DNA from: a virus
Taxonomy: Duplodnaviria > Caudoviricetes
Length of the DNA stretch: 45,851 bases
Reading direction: 5' to 3' (one strand)
Virus record (IMG/VR): IMGVR_UViG_3300005980_000004
Location: 1-45,851 of that record
Part shown: piece after piece, positions 28,420-45,741 of the stretch
How positions within the stretch are numbered: the stretch's first letter is position 1
How the letters are laid out: each line of letters begins with the position of its first letter
The notes under the pieces: generated by a model
The model's input: the letters and a program-made list of their open reading frames with translations, nothing else
What the model was told of the DNA's origin: nothing
The model's database searches: none
Made by a program: the position numbers and the translations under genes

Positions 28420-28694
28420 TGCGCGTCTCCGGCGAGGGCTTCGGCTTTCAGGGCTGCGTATGCGACACAGTCTTCGGCAGAATCGGCGTGGTAGGTCGGG
28501 TTCTGCCACTGGCGCACGTCTTTCAGGATCTGGAGTAGTAGCCACCCTTCGGCCTCGGTCAGGGCCTGCCCGGTGATGGTGTTGAAGGCAGACACAGCGG
28601 TGCCCATGCTGCGCTCGCCTTCCGGCTTGTCGTACTGCTGGCCACGCTCCAGCATGAGGGCCTGGGCCTTACCAAGAAATTCGTGCGCCTTCAT
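28416..28694 (-). CDS. DUF6378 / T7 gp1.7-like nucleotide-metabolism protein
   Basis: ERG.QYD...ERS, LK..R and DS..D.VAY.AL motifs. Confidence 0.65.
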   Translation of the reverse strand: MKAHEFLGKAQALMLERGQQYDKPEGERSMGTAVSAFNTITGQALTEAEGWLLLQILKDVRQWQNPTYHADSAEDCVAYAALKAEALAGDAQ

Positions 28695-29305
28695 GCTGTT
28701 ACTCCTGTTTCCGAGAAACGAGTGCGCAATGCCATTGCAATGCGCGGATCAACCTGCATATCGGCATAGGCAAGAGCAAGTTCGTGTTTTCTCGCTCGCC
28801 ACGCCTCATGGGCCTCATTGGGGTCGGCGAAAACGCCGAGGTATTCGCTCTTCCCGGTAAATGGGTTCTTGCACTGAGACTGGAATTTTCCAGTGCTCTT
28901 GCTCCAGCAAACCCCGATCGGCCATTCACCACGAGCCGCTCCACCGTCCAACATGAAGCTGTTGATCTGAGCAGAAACGAGCACACACGTTTCAGGGCTG
29001 TACACCTTGTTGCCAGGAGTGATGATGTCTTTGTCAAGCTGCTTGCCTTCCCAGTCTTGCGTTAGCATCCAGCCACGAAAAGCCGAAAATGAGTGCCATT
29101 CGGGCGAAACGGTGCATCGCATGTAGGTAGGATATTTGGCCTTAAGCTTCGGTGAATGGCAGCGCCTCAACATGCTCTTCCATGCCTGATAGATTGGGCA
29201 CCGCCATGTAGTACTCTGCCGGCCATCTATAGAGATCCAAGTCGATACCGGATAATCGGCATCATTGACCCCAACACCCTGGACTAGCCCCCTACTTGAT
29301 TTCAT
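28691..29305 (-). CDS. HNH-related homing endonuclease with AP2-like C-terminus
   Basis: GVGVND, W.SMLRRC, EWHSFSAF, LDKD...GNKVYSPETC and YLG.F....EAH motifs. Confidence 0.75.
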   Translation of the reverse strand: MKSSRGLVQGVGVNDADYPVSTWISIDGRQSTTWRCPIYQAWKSMLRRCHSPKLKAKYPTYMRCTVSPEWHSFSAFRGWMLTQDWEGKQLDKDIITPGNKVYSPETCVLVSAQINSFMLDGGAARGEWPIGVCWSKSTGKFQSQCKNPFTGKSEYLGVFADPNEAHEAWRARKHELALAYADMQVDPRIAMALRTRFSETGVTA

Positions 29306-30599: not shown

Positions 30600-31066
30600 G
30601 CGGCCTCCTTGCTCAGCAGGTCAGTGAACACAACGCCCTGGCCGGTGAAGTACGTGGCCATGCGGTCGGTGTACTGGACGCCCTGGGCGCGATTGAACAG
30701 GCTGGTCACCGGGAAGCCGTCCGGGCCGAACAAGTGGCACTCCCCCATCATGGCCAGCTTGGTCTCGTAGGGCAGATGGCGCATGACCCGGTACCACTCG
30801 GCCTGGAAGCCGGCGTCCTCGTTCAGCAGGATCTGCACACCGAAGTGCAGCTTGCAGTACCGGCGGGCGTCGGCCGCGTCGCCGATCTGGGTCATCTCTG
30901 AAACCCGCTTGTACATCGCGAACCACAGGGCGTTCTGGTCGAGCGTGCGGTCCTTGCCCGGACGTAGGGAGACCACCACGAACTTCTTGTCCCGGTACAT
31001 GGTGGTCAGGCAGGTGATGGCTTCGGAGAGCTTGGCCTGGCAGTTGACGGAGATTTTTTCACTCAT
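30596..31066 (-). CDS. NinB-like protein
   Basis: RTLDQNALW motif; nin-region position. Confidence 0.6.
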   Translation of the reverse strand: MSEKISVNCQAKLSEAITCLTTMYRDKKFVVVSLRPGKDRTLDQNALWFAMYKRVSEMTQIGDAADARRYCKLHFGVQILLNEDAGFQAEWYRVMRHLPYETKLAMMGECHLFGPDGFPVTSLFNRAQGVQYTDRMATYFTGQGVVFTDLLSKEAA

Positions 31067-31596
31067 CAAACAGCCCTCCCGTGGTTTACATGGAAGCCGC
31101 GATAGAATTCTGCTGACTTCCTCGCGCATACCGCCTCAAAAAAGTCTTTGTAGTGGCCGAGGTAGACATTCGCGCAGACGCTTCTGTCGTCAGACCCAAT
31201 GGTTACCTCCCAGCGATTCCTTCGAGTCAACCAGTAAACACCCATCACTCCGCTTTTGTTGGTTGCGCGGCGCCTTTGGTTGCGGCTGCTTTCTGTGCGA
31301 TCCGCGCGCCGCAGGTTGACGAACCGGTTGTCTTGACGGTCTCCATTGATATGGTCAACGTCCGCTTCCGGCAACGAACCATCGACCAGCAGGAATGCAA
31401 GCCGATGTGCCAGGTAATAAGTCCCTTCTAAGCCAATCTGCACATATCCTTTCCCATTGACGTATCCGGCTTTTTTACCAATCAAATCCACGCGGGGCCC
31501 GCGGCAGGTTTTCCATCGAAAATCGCCAGTATCAGGATCGTAATCAAGATGCGTACTGACAAACGCCCTGTCGATAATCTTCACTGATCTGGTCAT
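31066..31596 (-). CDS. HNH homing endonuclease
   Basis: YDPDTG.F.W, AHRLA and VDHINGDRQDNRFVNLR motifs. Confidence 0.9.
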   Translation of the reverse strand: MTRSVKIIDRAFVSTHLDYDPDTGDFRWKTCRGPRVDLIGKKAGYVNGKGYVQIGLEGTYYLAHRLAFLLVDGSLPEADVDHINGDRQDNRFVNLRRADRTESSRNQRRRATNKSGVMGVYWLTRRNRWEVTIGSDDRSVCANVYLGHYKDFFEAVCARKSAEFYRGFHVNHGRAV

Positions 31597-32186
31597 GACT
31601 GCTCTCCCTGGCCCAGGGCGGCCAACTTGCGGCGGATGCGCGCCGTCGGACCTTCGGGGCTTGGCCCAACGAACTCTTCGGTAGTTGGCGGCACTGGCTC
31701 GCCGGCGAGAATTTTCAATCGGCGAATCTCGGCGCACAGCTCATGGTGAGACCGGACCAGCTCTAGCGTTCCCCGCCCATGGCAGAAGCTCAGCAAGCGA
31801 TAGGATTCGGCATCCTTGCGCAGCGCCTCAACCTCAAACACCAGCCCGGTCAGCGCCTCAATCGCGGCTTTGTCCCCGAAGTAGATGTGCTCTCCACCCT
31901 CTTCGCCGTAGCTGCAGTAGGTTTCGGTTTTGGCCTTGAGCGCCTCGTTCTCGGCCTTGATCTGGTCGCGCTCGGCGATCAGGGCCAGGACTGCGGCAGG
32001 ATTTGCGGCAGCGATGAACTTCAGCGCCGCGTAATACGCCTCGTCCTCCACGTCATGCCCGGCATCGGCATCCAACATATGCCGTGTGTAACCGTCGTCC
32101 TTAAAATACAGGGAATCGTTTTCGGCGATCCACGGACCGCTCGGCGCAGCGTCGGCCAGCCGCTTCAGTTCGGTGTAGTCGTTCAT
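31593..32186 (-). CDS. Ead/Ea22-like protein
   Basis: LKRLA.AA..GPW and FIAAANPAAVLALIAE motifs. Confidence 0.75.
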   Translation of the reverse strand: MNDYTELKRLADAAPSGPWIAENDSLYFKDDGYTRHMLDADAGHDVEDEAYYAALKFIAAANPAAVLALIAERDQIKAENEALKAKTETYCSYGEEGGEHIYFGDKAAIEALTGLVFEVEALRKDAESYRLLSFCHGRGTLELVRSHHELCAEIRRLKILAGEPVPPTTEEFVGPSPEGPTARIRRKLAALGQGEQS

Positions 32187-33174: not shown

Positions 33175-34129
33175 TGCTGTTCCCTCCTTCCAAAATGCTG
33201 CGACTGGCTTCTTGGGCGGCGTTGATGTTCGCTTGGGTCTTTTCCTGCTGGCGGGCGGTCTCACCGTTGGTTTGGGTGTTGGTCTTCCACTGGGTGTGAT
33301 AACCCTCAGCATTGGCGAGCAGTTCGCTGAGGCTGTGGCATTTGCGGATCAACATGGCATCGTTGATCCCGAGGTAGTAAGCCGCGACGCTGTGGGAGAC
33401 TTCGATACCCAGGCGGCCGATCAGCAAACCAATCTGTCCGGCAACCTTCGCATTCCACACCGGCCACGCCTTGTAGCGGCGGCGGTAGGACACGGCGTAG
33501 TTCGCCCAGGTCTTGAAGGTTTTGCAGTCAGGGTCTTTAGGGCCTGGCATATCAGAAGGTATTTCAACGCGCGGAGCGTCAGGGCGATCAATAACCAAAA
33601 CCAGTTCGCCGGTGCGGATCGGCGAAGCCGGGACCACCTGCAAATTCTGATTATTGGTTTCCTGATTGGTACCTTGATTATTGGTACCTTGATTTGTCGG
33701 AGATTTATCCGAGGTAAGCTCGGATTTTTTTCCGACCTTGCTCGGAGATTTATCCGAGGTACCACGGATTTTTTTCCGACCCCCTTCAGGGTTGCTCGGA
33801 TAATTTTCCGACCCATCATGTTTGCGGTTCCACTCCTTGCCTTTGTCGGTAAGGCGTATCAAGGTGATCTTGCTGGTACTCGACATCTGTACCAGCCCAG
33901 CGTCTTCCAATGCCTTCAGCATGCGGTAAGCGGTATCAGGCTTACCCGACAGCAAAGGAAGCTCGCAAACGATCTTTGCCTTGCTTAGCGCGAAGAAGAC
34001 CCCGTCATCTGTCTTGACCGGATTTGCCCAGCTCGGGCACTCATAGACGAATGCAAAAAGCATCGCCTGCTGAGAGTTCAAGCCCCACTCAAGGGACTTA
34101 AACTGGTTGATGGTGATGGTGTATTGCAT
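33149..34129 (-). CDS. Replication initiator (O-like)
   Basis: N-terminal winged-HTH-like region; internal iteron array. Confidence 0.8.
   Translation of the reverse strand: MQYTITINQFKSLEWGLNSQQAMLFAFVYECPSWANPVKTDDGVFFALSKAKIVCELPLLSGKPDTAYRMLKALEDAGLVQMSSTSKITLIRLTDKGKEWNRKHDGSENYPSNPEGGRKKIRGTSDKSPSKVGKKSELTSDKSPTNQGTNNQGTNQETNNQNLQVVPASPIRTGELVLVIDRPDAPRVEIPSDMPGPKDPDCKTFKTWANYAVSYRRRYKAWPVWNAKVAGQIGLLIGRLGIEVSHSVAAYYLGINDAMLIRKCHSLSELLANAEGYHTQWKTNTQTNGETARQQEKTQANINAAQEASRSILEGGNSNAFLRRNR
33648..33811. repeat. Replication origin: five iterons plus AT-rich repeats
   Basis: CGGA-N6-TCCGA at 33698, 33721, 33743, 33765 and 33797; adjacent ATTGGT repeats. Confidence 0.8.
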
Positions 34130-34130
34130 A

Positions 34131-34745
34131 TCAGGCCACCGCAGCGCAGGAGTAACCGCGGCGCTGACTATCAGTCGCTCCGTGATTTGGGTGAAAGCCA
34201 TAGATGGCTTCGGCGTCTTTACGGGCAGCTACGGCTGAATCGAAATTTTGAAACCGACCTACACAGATGTACTTGCCGTCAATTTTGATTCGAACACGCC
34301 ATTTGCCATTTTCAAGGCGGACGCCAGGAACGCCGGATGAGTTGTCTTTTCGGATATGCTGATTACGCTGATTGCCTTGTACCGTTACATCGCGCAGATT
34401 CTCGATACGGTTGTCATCACGAATACCATTGATGTGGTCAATCTGGCCTTTTGGCCATTCGCCATAGGTAATCAGCCAAATAACTCTATGGACTCGGAAC
34501 AAAACGTTGTTGATTTTTACCCGCAGATAACCGTCCATGTTTGGTGAGCCGGCGATCATTCCTGGCATCGCCCTGGCGCCTCGCCGAACTAGATTCACGA
34601 GCTTTCCGTCAACAACCCTGAAAAGCCTTCTGGCCTCAGTAGCTGAAAGTAAAATCTCTATATTTCCAGGCGCTACGTTTTTTGATTGCGAAAAACGTGG
34701 CGCGGGATTATTCAGGGCCTGTACATCGAGATTAGAGGTGTGCAT
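34131..34745 (-). CDS. HNH homing endonuclease with AP2-like domain
   Basis: VHRVIW, IDHINGIRDDNRIENLR and NSSGVPGV motifs. Confidence 0.9.
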   Translation of the reverse strand: MHTSNLDVQALNNPAPRFSQSKNVAPGNIEILLSATEARRLFRVVDGKLVNLVRRGARAMPGMIAGSPNMDGYLRVKINNVLFRVHRVIWLITYGEWPKGQIDHINGIRDDNRIENLRDVTVQGNQRNQHIRKDNSSGVPGVRLENGKWRVRIKIDGKYICVGRFQNFDSAVAARKDAEAIYGFHPNHGATDSQRRGYSCAAVA

Positions 34746-42273: not shown

Positions 42274-42892
42274 CGCTGAATGGTTTGCGGCCAGGCTTGG
42301 GAATGTCACAGCCAGCCGGGTCAAGGACGTGATGGCCAGCGGGCGCGGTGGTGCGCCTTCTGCCACTCGCAAAAACTACATGATGGAGTTGTTGTGCGAG
42401 CGACTGACTGGTCAGCAGGGCGGCATGGATCTTTCGCGCAACGCGGCTGTTCAGCGCGGCGTCGAGCTTGAGCCATTCGCCTGCATGGCCTATGAGGCTG
42501 ACAAAGACCTGATGGTGGTCGAGACTGGATTGGTCATGCACCCGACCATTCAAGGTTTCGGCGCATCGCCAGACGGTCTATCGGGTGATGACGGCGTGCT
42601 TGAGATCAAGTGCCCTAACACTGCGACCCACATCGCGACCATGCAGTCCGGCAAGCATGACCCTCAGTACGAGTGGCAGATGCTTGCCCAGATGGCTTGC
42701 ACAGGCCGCAAGTGGGCTGACTTCGTGAGTTACGACGACCGCCTTCCCGAGGAGCTTCAGTACGTCTGCTTCCGGTATGAGTTTGACTTCAAACGAGCCC
42801 GCGAGATGGAGGCCGAAATAAAGGCATTCCTGGAAGAGCTGGCCGAACTTGAGAAGGAAATGCGGGAGCGGATGGGGAGCAAAGCAGCATGA
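42260..42892 (+). CDS. YqaJ/lambda-exonuclease family protein
   Basis: QRS.EW...R.G.VTAS, GASPDG and LEIKCP motifs. Confidence 0.92.
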   Translation: MEQRSAEWFAARLGNVTASRVKDVMASGRGGAPSATRKNYMMELLCERLTGQQGGMDLSRNAAVQRGVELEPFACMAYEADKDLMVVETGLVMHPTIQGFGASPDGLSGDDGVLEIKCPNTATHIATMQSGKHDPQYEWQMLAQMACTGRKWADFVSYDDRLPEELQYVCFRYEFDFKRAREMEAEIKAFLEELAELEKEMRERMGSKAA

Positions 42893-43482
42893 TCAGCAAC
42901 CACCTAGGCATGGTCGAGGCTCTTCGGCCGGCATCGAACGAACTGGCCGCAGCGGTCGAGCAGTTCCTGGCGGCCGGCGGCCATATCGAAGAAGGGCCGG
43001 CCTGCGGCTACATCCCCAAGCCCATCACCTACAGCAACCAGATGCCGCCAGCGCCAAAGCCGTTTGTGCGGCGCCGGGTCGAGCCGGCTCCCCTACCATT
43101 TGCGCCGCTCGACGTCAGGAGCGACAAGCGCGCAAAGCAGGCAGAGCTGGCAAAGGCCCTGGCCACCACCCACACGCAAAGCCAAGCCTCTATGGCGCTT
43201 GGAATGACCAGCAAGACGCTCAAGGGCCTGGCAAAGGACTTCGGCTTCACGTTCAAGCGGTCAGAACACGGCGGCTACAACGGGCCTGAGCGCCAAAAGC
43301 AACTGGTCGAGCGAAACGCCAAATTTGCCGAGCGCATCAAGGAATTCAAGGCGCTTGGCATCACTCGCCGCCAGGCATGCGGAAAGCTCGCGATCTCCAA
43401 CAAGACGTTTGATCGAATCCTTGAAGAGCATGGAATTGATTATCCGAAAGCATGCCTTGGGCGTCCTTCATGCGCCGCATAG
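42889..43482 (+). CDS. Hypothetical protein with two HTH-like repeats
   Basis: FLAAGG.I N-terminal motif; two ...LG.S.KT...I/L...G helical repeats. Confidence 0.7.
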   Translation: MISNHLGMVEALRPASNELAAAVEQFLAAGGHIEEGPACGYIPKPITYSNQMPPAPKPFVRRRVEPAPLPFAPLDVRSDKRAKQAELAKALATTHTQSQASMALGMTSKTLKGLAKDFGFTFKRSEHGGYNGPERQKQLVERNAKFAERIKEFKALGITRRQACGKLAISNKTFDRILEEHGIDYPKACLGRPSCAA

Positions 43483-43892: not shown

Positions 43893-44504
43893 ATGAAAGC
43901 CAAGACCATTTCCATCGAGGCTGACGGCCTCAAAATCAAAGGCCCGGCGGAGCGCATGATTCATCTGCTGGCCGCAAGCATGTTTGCCCAGGCATTGCCG
44001 CCGGCAGCGAATGTTCAGCCAGCACCCCAATCCCCAACCCCGGAGATCGGCCAGCCTTGGCCGGGCCAGGGCGGCATCAACGGAGGCTTCGTCCATGCCC
44101 GCGGTGATGTTCCGGCGCATTATCTGATCATCGCCGCCAAGGACGTTGGAAGCCTTGAATGGGGTGGCCGTGGCGTTGAGGTGAAGGGTCTAAGCAAGAC
44201 TGACGGCTACACCAACACCCAGGTGCTGATCGGCAATGATGACGAGCGAAAGTACCCGGCGGCTGATGCCTGTGCCGAGTACCAGGCTGATGGTTATCAT
44301 GACTTCTACCTGCCGGCCGCTGCCGAGCTGTATCACTGCTGGCTGAACTATCCTGAGGTGCTCGCCCAGGACTGCTATTACTGGTCGAGTTCGCAGCGCT
44401 CAGCCTACTACGCATTCGGCATGTACTTCGGTGATGGCACTCAGCACTACAACGAAAAGCTCAACGAGCTCCGTGTCCGCCCCGTCCGCAGATTCTTTAT
44501 TTAA
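43893..44504 (+). CDS. DUF1566/CLec-like DGR target protein 1
   Basis: DG..NT, YLPA..EL, YWSSSQ...A....F..G and RVRPVRR motifs; carries VR1. Confidence 0.85.
   Translation: MKAKTISIEADGLKIKGPAERMIHLLAASMFAQALPPAANVQPAPQSPTPEIGQPWPGQGGINGGFVHARGDVPAHYLIIAAKDVGSLEWGGRGVEVKGLSKTDGYTNTQVLIGNDDERKYPAADACAEYQADGYHDFYLPAAAELYHCWLNYPEVLAQDCYYWSSSQRSAYYAFGMYFGDGTQHYNEKLNELRVRPVRRFFI
44379..44492 (+). repeat. DGR variable repeat VR1
   Basis: 98/114 identical to 45076-45189, with mismatches confined to nine AAY-like codons. Confidence 0.85.
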
Positions 44505-44539
44505 TCCTTCATCCATTCGTTCTTGATCCGGCACACCAG

Positions 44540-44558
44540 GGCGCACAGCGCCTTTTTT
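44540..44558 (+). other. Hairpin downstream of VR1 (DGR target-recognition cruciform or weak terminator)
   Basis: GGCGC-ACA-GCGCC then T6, about 50 bp after the GC-rich VR end. Confidence 0.45.
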
Positions 44559-44583
44559 GTTGCCTTCGAAAAGAGGAAGCATC

Positions 44584-45207
44584 ATGTCCGCAGTTGAGAA
44601 AGCAGCACCGGCCGTAACCCCCCTAGCCATCGGCCACGCCTACGGCGGCGGTTTCGTCACCGGCATTACCCGCGACCCGGTAACCGGACAGCGCTTCCTG
44701 AACATCACCGCTGGTGCCGAGCATGAACTGGTCGGCAAGTGGGGCGAGTACGGCGAGAAGATCGAGGGCGCCGACAGCTTCACCGACAGCCTGGCCAATA
44801 CCCAGGCAATGGCGGCGGCAGGCAGCGAACTGGCAGCGAAGGTCCTGGCCCTGAGCATCGAAGGCTTCACCGACTGGGCAATCCCGGCGCGCGACGTGCA
44901 AGAGATGCAGTACCGCCACTTCAAACCGACCACCGAAGAAAACTGGGCAGGCGCCCGCAGCGGTGACAACCCGAACAGCGAGCCAGTAGGCCTGCTGTAC
45001 AGCGAAGAAGACCCGGCGCAGACCGCACACGCAGCATTCCAGGAGGGCGGCGCCGAAGCCTTCCGCGACACCTGGTACTGGTCGAGTTCGCAGCGCTCAG
45101 CCAGCATCGCATTCAACATGTACTTCGGTGATGGCTATCAGGGCAGCCACGACAAGCTCCGCGAGCTCCGTGTCCGCCCCGTCCGCAGAATTCTGATCGA
45201 GGCTTAA
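44584..45207 (+). CDS. DUF1566/CLec-like DGR target protein 2
   Basis: GGGFV.G, D...NT.AM, DW.IPARD..E, YWSSSQ and RVRPVRR motifs; carries VR2. Confidence 0.85.
   Translation: MSAVEKAAPAVTPLAIGHAYGGGFVTGITRDPVTGQRFLNITAGAEHELVGKWGEYGEKIEGADSFTDSLANTQAMAAAGSELAAKVLALSIEGFTDWAIPARDVQEMQYRHFKPTTEENWAGARSGDNPNSEPVGLLYSEEDPAQTAHAAFQEGGAEAFRDTWYWSSSQRSASIAFNMYFGDGYQGSHDKLRELRVRPVRRILIEA
45076..45189 (+). repeat. DGR variable repeat VR2
   Basis: Partner of VR1; see the corresponding finding. Confidence 0.85.
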
Positions 45208-45211
45208 ATCA

Positions 45212-45673
45212 ATGGCGACACGTGAATCGCTGAAAGCCAGATCGGTGCGTGTTGGTGAATGCCTGATCTGGCGCGGAGGTCTGAACCCTGGTGGCTACGG
45301 CTATGTATGGCATGAAGGGAAGAATCGGGCGACTCATCGCGTTTCATACGAGATGAATGTCGGCCCGATACCCGAAGGCCTTGAATTGCTTCACTCCTGC
45401 GACACGCCATCATGTATTGAGCCTTCTCACCTGTCGCCCGGCACCCATGCCGCAAATATGAAGGAAATGGCAGACAGAAAACGCTGTAACCGGCCCTCAG
45501 GCGAAATGCATTCGCTCGCCAAGCTTACCGAGGCCCAAGCCGCCGACATTCGCAGGCGCTACAAGCCTTACTGCCGAATCAACAGCAGTTGCGCCATTGC
45601 GAAAGAGCTTGGCGTATCGCAGCGAACGGTTTGGGCGGTGATCAAGGGCATCACCTGGAAAGAGTCGTCCTAG
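45212..45673 (+). CDS. HNH (His-Cys/zinc-finger type) homing endonuclease with C-terminal HTH
   Basis: C..W.G....GYG, THRVSY, LHSCD.P.C.EP.HL..GT...N and AKLT...IAKELGVS motifs. Confidence 0.9.
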   Translation: MATRESLKARSVRVGECLIWRGGLNPGGYGYVWHEGKNRATHRVSYEMNVGPIPEGLELLHSCDTPSCIEPSHLSPGTHAANMKEMADRKRCNRPSGEMHSLAKLTEAQAADIRRRYKPYCRINSSCAIAKELGVSQRTVWAVIKGITWKESS

Positions 45674-45741
45674 CCCGTGTCGTGCTGAAGCGCGGCAACA
45701 GCGTCAACGCGGCGCTGACCAAGACCTACCAGAAGAAATAA
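45670..45741 (+). pseudogene. Putative 3' remnant of a DGR reverse transcriptase
   Basis: Startless frame LARVVLKRGNSVNAALTKTYQKK-stop with coding-like codon usage; resembles C-termini of Pseudomonas prophage DGR RTs as recalled, not searched. Confidence 0.55.

Follow-up and report, generated by a model that had tools for sequence, protein, structure and literature searches.

In a 45,851-nt stretch of a temperate, contractile-tailed phage (IMG/VR record IMGVR_UViG_3300005980_000004, hereafter the window), two tandem genes for lectin-fold proteins end in real DGR variable repeats (VR1 and VR2), and a cassette encoding an HNH endonuclease occupies the place in which close relatives, all of them Pseudomonas phages or prophages, carry avd, the template (TR) and the reverse transcriptase gene (RT). 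We suggest that this DGR engine was displaced by the HNH cassette in a homing-type event that left frozen targets behind, a reading to which we give a probability of about 0.6; both proteins have probably been fixed in their most recent variants. This provides a concrete explanation for a share of the many broken DGRs that genomes contain, and it means that orphan variable repeats can be relics and not remote targets. If homing is the right explanation, the locus would record a conflict of two mobile elements, one disabling the evolvability of the other, and would provide a natural nuclease specific for a DGR. The reading is testable, since a phage with an intact engine (Cruim01) and two cassette-carrying phages (Aurca01 and Medea1) are in culture, and two phages with the genotypes needed were obtained on one and the same host strain.

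Variable repeats in two tandem target genes

The sequence-only reading of this DNA had proposed that both genes carry repeats bearing the adenine signature of a DGR. On recomputation every number of that claim stands: positions 44379-44492 and 45076-45189 are identical at 98 of 114 bases, and the 16 mismatches are confined to nine codons, none of them synonymous, with 15 at codon positions 1-2 and 15 having A in one copy (9 in VR1, 6 in VR2). Identity ends abruptly on both sides of the repeat, the VR pair is the sole long repeat within the window, and the two target proteins can be aligned by BLASTP over their last 45 residues only. The proposed derivation of both copies from one AAC-rich template absent from the window was likewise borne out: the best other match to VR1 or VR2 on either strand of the window reaches 52/114, and a template matching the predicted sequence is present in relatives, linked to avd and RT and located ~700 nt behind VR2. 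Two details needed adjustment. The adenine rule holds for 15 of the 16 mismatches, the GAA/GAC codon containing a single non-adenine change, and the 114-nt repeats are genuine DGR VRs whose homology to the template begins only at ~44391 and ~45088 and not at the first base. Compared with the template of L159 (= L003), the nearest intact relative, 24 of the 25 differences in the window's VRs fall at template adenines and one at a non-A site (Table 1). Chance similarity or a recent duplication as the origin of the pair is excluded by this A/non-A contrast and by the sharp borders. A tail-fibre gene was rejected as the DGR target, the tail genes at 2.4–15 kb containing no VR.

Table 1. Remnant DGR locus and nuclease cassette, in positions of the window
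Feature	Position	Strand	Evidence and remarks
Target gene 1, 203 aa, Lcl_C/DUF1566 (C-type lectin fold)	43893..44504	+	PF07603 E 1.5e-7 (below curated cut-off); phrog_4245 E 1e-31; VR at 3' end
VR1	44379..44492; template homology from ~44391	+	Ends in GC-rich constant tail; differs from L159 template at 11/32 A vs 1/68 non-A (Fisher p 9e-6)
Short GC hairpin, then T run, behind VR1	44540..44552	+	Retained; putative target-recognition role by analogy (PMC3240598)
Target gene 2, 207 aa, Lcl_C/DUF1566	44584..45207	+	Pfam E 2.9e-6 (below curated cut-off); phrog_4245; predicted model matches C-type lectin folds
VR2	45076..45189; template homology from ~45088	+	Conserved downstream hairpin lost; differs from L159 template at 13/32 A vs 0/68 non-A (p 5e-8)
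Cassette A: leader and HNH endonuclease gene	45190..45673; gene 45212-45673, 153 aa	+	HNH_3 E 2.8e-9, above cut-off; C-terminal HTH
RT stub, last 23 codons and stop	45670..45741	+	Overlaps HNH stop codon; translation, tblastn

A predicted model of target 2 (mean pLDDT 75, with the VR part below 50 and of low confidence) matched C-type lectin-type folds only, at middling scores (Z 6.8 for 4eps and 6.0 for the Lcl C-terminal domain). Known DGR targets scored Z 2.3–2.6 against it, and a Foldseek search with the model returned no match at E<=0.001. The C-terminus of target 2 differs from that of DGR-positive relatives, its last five codons being supplied by the nuclease cassette. Both targets are located in an early operon behind repressor, RecT and YqaJ genes, ~30 kb away from the tail genes; this position, together with inspection of the N-termini, suggests that they are likely to function intracellularly as small variable binding proteins. 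A study of gut prophages notes second VRs close to counter-defence genes (PMC12629997). The early gene two genes upstream of the targets (42889-43482) shows a weak match to the SutA RNA-polymerase-binding domain (E 2.4e-5, below cut-off).

The intact DGR of relatives and its replacement in the window

Pattern scans of the relatives recovered the order target-target-avd-TR-RT, with avd and RT confirmed by Pfam and PHROG. In intact relatives, and in the replacement type called allele B below, the Rfam RT-15 RNA (RF03018) is found in the interval from avd to TR (L001, L151, L008); the window and Medea1 lack it. Across 82 cognate VR-TR pairs, differences affect 1160 of 2548 template adenines and 33 of 5652 non-A sites. 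We regard the intact family as active, because two prophage pairs (L164/L196 and L156/L167) have identical gene bodies and yet differ by 13–20 nt per VR, and because in L018 one non-A template variant is common to the TR and both VRs; three intact pairs, probably resampled phages, have identical VRs.

In eight of the 44 intact loci (L157, L160, L162, L165, L168, L170, L182 and L200) the TR has lost adenines relative to the common template, with seven changes in L200, and the replacement bases are also present in one or both of the locus's own VRs. To judge from these genomes, the template seems at times to be overwritten, by self-retrohoming or by conversion from a VR, eroding its diversity. 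Some relatives have a third, remote 160-aa target 2–6 kb upstream (L001:3375-3857; L009; L045), and the window has none. VR2 of L017, near 1858-1971, contains a stop codon where the near-identical L019 has Phe, reflecting either a broken target or an assembly error. Single VR-like stretches of 72–82% identity were also seen in records of P. aeruginosa phages (H6-H28), including jumbo phages PA5oct and MIJ3 and orf68 of D3.

This DGR family is already known. Pseudomonas TG-TG-AVD-TR-RT elements of architecture B1 (CLec2) with two DUF1566 targets appear in Table S1 of Wu et al. 2018 (PMC5758913) for Pseudomonas sp. M47T1 and GM67. These elements, of a kind whose prototype is that of the Bordetella phage BPP-1, resemble the window in their tandem DUF1566 targets, C-terminal VRs and adenine-specific differences; they also have stem-loops after the VRs, an optional remote third target and the same gene order as the relatives found here. 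In contrast, the window retains neither avd nor TR, and of the RT only 23 codons.

The window departs from its relatives directly after VR2 and rejoins them at position 45670, the distance from the end of VR2 to the RT stub being 492 nt, against 1739 nt in L159. Cassette A, of ~0.5 kb, thus stands in for ~1.7 kb of avd, RT-15 RNA, TR and RT, and the stub that follows it is 85–94% identical in nucleotide sequence to the RT 3' ends of relatives. The template is absent from the window because the HNH gene took the place of avd-TR-RT. No avd and no RT sequence besides the stub was found in the window, and neither TR, avd nor RT is present in the 5.8-kb extension, up to an integrase-like gene, that is provided by contig L036, which is identical to the window over 6640 shared bases; a location of the template elsewhere in the phage was rejected on these grounds.

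In the nuclease itself, the putative HNH motif residues H42, H61, C63, C68, H73 and N82 are invariant in 20 homologues, and residue 70, usually Asn, is Glu throughout the close clade. A profile search against solved structures returned an HTH protein as its sole match. At E<=1e-25 the window's HNH was not found in 400 of 401 genus genomes, and phage records contained no match above 60% identity. Two further HNH-family genes lie in the window at 28691-29305 and 34131-34745 (minus strand), with a possible third at 31066-31737.

Nuclease cassettes at the DGR slot

The slot was surveyed in 53 viral contigs, which had been selected through a pattern in target 2, upstream of the slot, and which include two near-duplicate intact pairs. 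Forty-two loci are intact, seven carry HNH replacements (allele A in one, B in four, C in two), two are plain truncations and two are cut off. HNH replacements thus account for 7 of 51 informative contigs and for 7 of 9 engine losses, and the nuclease is optional, 42 of the 51 having the engine in its place. All three inserts belong to HNH families. Allele A, the window's type, deletes avd up to RT codon ~363. Allele B (206 aa, phrog_374) deletes most of the TR and continues up to RT codon 343; in L201 it has a second kind of left junction, which lies within avd. Allele C, a NUMOD4-HNH that is 34% identical to A, deletes avd up to RT codon 357 and is found in the cultured phages Medea1 and Aurca01. 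The DNA deleted by all cassettes extends from the 3' part of the TR to RT codon 343. In L305-L307, cassette C follows on the tail of VR1; these loci have lost target 2, and their target 1 ends in cassette codons.

The 401 genus genomes yielded 24 loci from 21 genomes (21 intact, one intact with an HNH gene, one cut off and one remote target), and replacement of the engine was seen in none of the 22 informative loci. The tail of allele A ends four proteins among the best 120 target-2 proteins, and the allele occurs, partial or whole, in runs of six further studies, where contigs of X4 and X5 link it to a VR and an RT stub. A fourth HNH gene, with 45% identity to that of the window, is inserted at the position of the avd start codon in L213/L230 (L230:3058-3531, G188); behind it, in L230, avd-TR-RT is intact and apparently active, with a TR variant common to both VRs. 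The density of HNH genes (5 in ~41 kb of slot vs 5–8 in 291 kb) is a modest and biased contrast, the profiles deriving partly from slot genes and the loci being non-independent, and we weight it lightly.

Close homologues of the cassettes were confined to the slot, namely three of cassette A besides the window's own sequence (L022, L023 and L040), five of five of B (at 91–100%) and five of five of C (at 99–100%), and none of the 17 distant homologues tested had DGR parts nearby. The cassettes sit on several target backgrounds. Aurca01 shows no difference from the DGR-positive prophage L199 over 1300 nt upstream, the two VRs excepted, its right flank matches that of DGR-positive Cruim01 at 99% identity, and nothing distinguishes its cassette from that of Medea1 (0/532 differences). 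L180 and L194 differ at 1/655 positions in the nuclease, 51/330 in the target-2 body and 13/132 in the RT stub, and L236 has cassette B in another VR lineage, where ~150 nt upstream are also alike. A tree of 54 target-2 bodies (five identical rows dropped, including Aurca01, equal to L199, and the two cut-off loci labelled intact) requires three changes for allele A, three for B and two for C, and it groups the window's body with those of intact L159 and L205 (96%). Cassettes on unrelated target backgrounds represent a genomic signature of movement with co-conversion of flanks, although ordinary mosaic recombination could yield similar boundaries.

Values of dN/dS of 0.04–0.14 for the nucleases overall, and 0.04–0.07 for cassette A, indicate that the cassettes evolve under purifying selection. 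The nucleases of the window and L023 differ at 46 of 106 synonymous sites and the VRs of both loci are nearly clean at non-A positions, so that either the cassette arrived recently at these VRs or the VRs have been reset.

Origin of the engine loss and fate of the targets

In the homing-type displacement that we favour, a mixed infection or a double lysogen would bring the nuclease into contact with the engine of a DGR-positive relative, which it would nick or cut at a site predicted to lie somewhere between the 3' part of the TR and RT codon 343. The break would be repaired off the cassette carrier, with the target gene/VR tail or the avd/RNA leader serving as the left arm and the RT 3' end as the right; the recipient would retain its own VRs and lose its engine, and the carrier would be immune because the cut site is missing from it. 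Extension of the recipient strand from the constant VR tail, which is present in both VR1 and VR2, would preserve each recipient's own VRs, as observed. The RT is conserved (81–100% identical to that of L001 in 44 loci) and 25 different neighbours are found downstream across 42 loci, leaving the RT end as the one right arm in common, which would account for the retained stubs.

Such an event would be close to intronless homing in T-even phages, where the cut sites of free-standing T4 endonucleases lie far from the gene and spread requires flanking homology (PMC2988022). With the T-even cases SegF, SegG and MobE (PMC2988022) and with the HNH genes of ICP1 (PMC10055350) and Skunavirus (PMC12724721) the window shares a promoter-less HNH gene within an operon, overlapping codons of its neighbour, as well as interchangeable nuclease families at one slot and signs of flank co-conversion. 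Most of the known cases lie next to essential genes or within them and exchange their alleles; the cassette described here, by contrast, deletes its presumed target, a dispensable 1.7-kb engine, in a temperate phage, and the cleavage is one that we infer.

Mosaic boundaries of this kind need no cut, as lambdoid-type phages swap modules freely and the window has RecT/YqaJ and at least two more HNH genes. It may be that HNH genes land widely, that the engine becomes dispensable or costly after a good variant has been found, and that ordinary mosaic recombination of the RecT type then spreads the engine-less module, which may be favoured as an off-switch, with a nuclease that does not target the engine. 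Such passive replacement would agree with the two plain truncations free of HNH (L169 and L174), with the further HNH genes of the window and its relatives, with the HNH beside an intact engine in L230, and with the report that more than half of candidate GenBank DGRs are broken (PMC5758913). We nevertheless consider it unlikely: an HNH gene is present in seven of the nine engine losses, close homologues of all three cassettes were found in the slot only, each of the plain truncations was observed once whereas the cassettes recur on several backgrounds with sharp edges, and dN/dS of the nucleases stays below 0.15.

A second possibility, compatible with homing, concerns what happens to the orphaned VRs: a co-resident prophage could supply its avd-TR-RT in trans and keep rewriting them, which would make the carrier a cheater. 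BPP-1 prophages devoid of avd-TR-brt were targeted from a donor plasmid (PMC3240598), a single template sequence is common to 17 loci, and genomes with two compatible DGR prophages exist. Further to that, carriers of identical cassettes differ in both VRs (16 and 18 of 105 positions between Medea1 and Aurca01), and orphan VRs, no less clean at non-A sites than active ones, show no non-A decay, as resetting in trans would also produce. However, none of the identical-cassette pairs is clonal, each showing further differences either in the right flank or between VR1 and the cassette, and the sole near-clonal trio (L305-L307, cassette C) shares one identical VR despite 13–23 nt differences elsewhere. 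An apparent VR1 difference among these three, seen in 50-nt windows, was discarded, as it lies in the upstream gene and outside the VRs. Identical VRs in siblings are no proof of freezing, given that three intact pairs share them as well. In the small sample at hand we found no clonal engine-less pair with changed VRs, and no near-identical sibling of the window's own allele. Run X1, which contains the window's sequence, shows no alternative letters in VR1 or VR2 at the level of contigs. The hairpin 3' of VR2, which is retained by 44 of 44 intact loci, is missing from all three allele-A loci (0/3), and in BPP-1 a comparable hairpin is needed for efficient retrohoming (PMC3240598); VR1, whose hairpin is kept in the window, would be the likelier substrate in trans. 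On balance, rewriting in trans appears improbable.

We give hardly any credit to the notion that the HNH protein works for the DGR, as a component or a regulator, for instance as a target-opening nuclease: a target-cutting nuclease has been proposed, and not identified, for DGRs (PMC3240598) and L230 combines an HNH gene with an intact engine, but no HNH gene occurs in the cassette of 42 intact viral and 20 published-genome loci, and in the window and other carriers it accompanies the loss of TR and RT.

Extending the homing-type displacement beyond this locus, we put forward, tentatively and at somewhat less than even odds, that a guild of unrelated HNH homing endonucleases has DGR engines as its standing target and would cut the conserved TR/RT region in rival phages and write over it. 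A selfish nuclease, and not drift, would then set the life span of a DGR and lock in the variants of its victim. If the cut is confirmed, orphaning by a nuclease cassette would be a new variant of intronless homing. We found no report of HNH replacement of a DGR in literature on DGRs with homing endonucleases or HNH, including the accessible text of PMC13503771, or on broken or orphan DGRs, a search covering few subscription papers. Wu et al. 2018 (PMC5758913) discarded broken DGRs; endonucleases are absent from the main text of that paper, as is the term HNH from its searched supplement file. The main text of Roux et al. 2021 (PMC8144416) mentions neither endonuclease nor HNH. The DGR goes unmentioned in the searched text of the paper on Cruim01 and Aurca01 (10.1101/2024.05.07.591244) and, by term search, in that on Medea1 (PMC10175458).

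Two features of the window are located outside the DGR slot. On the minus strand at ~70-120, a stretch resembles by eye part of a tRNA-Cys gene and may be an attachment site; ARAGORN detected no whole tRNA there, and the L036 extension contains no copy of the stretch. Within the O-like replication initiator gene, three 25-nt direct repeats at 33714-33814 are probably origin iterons.
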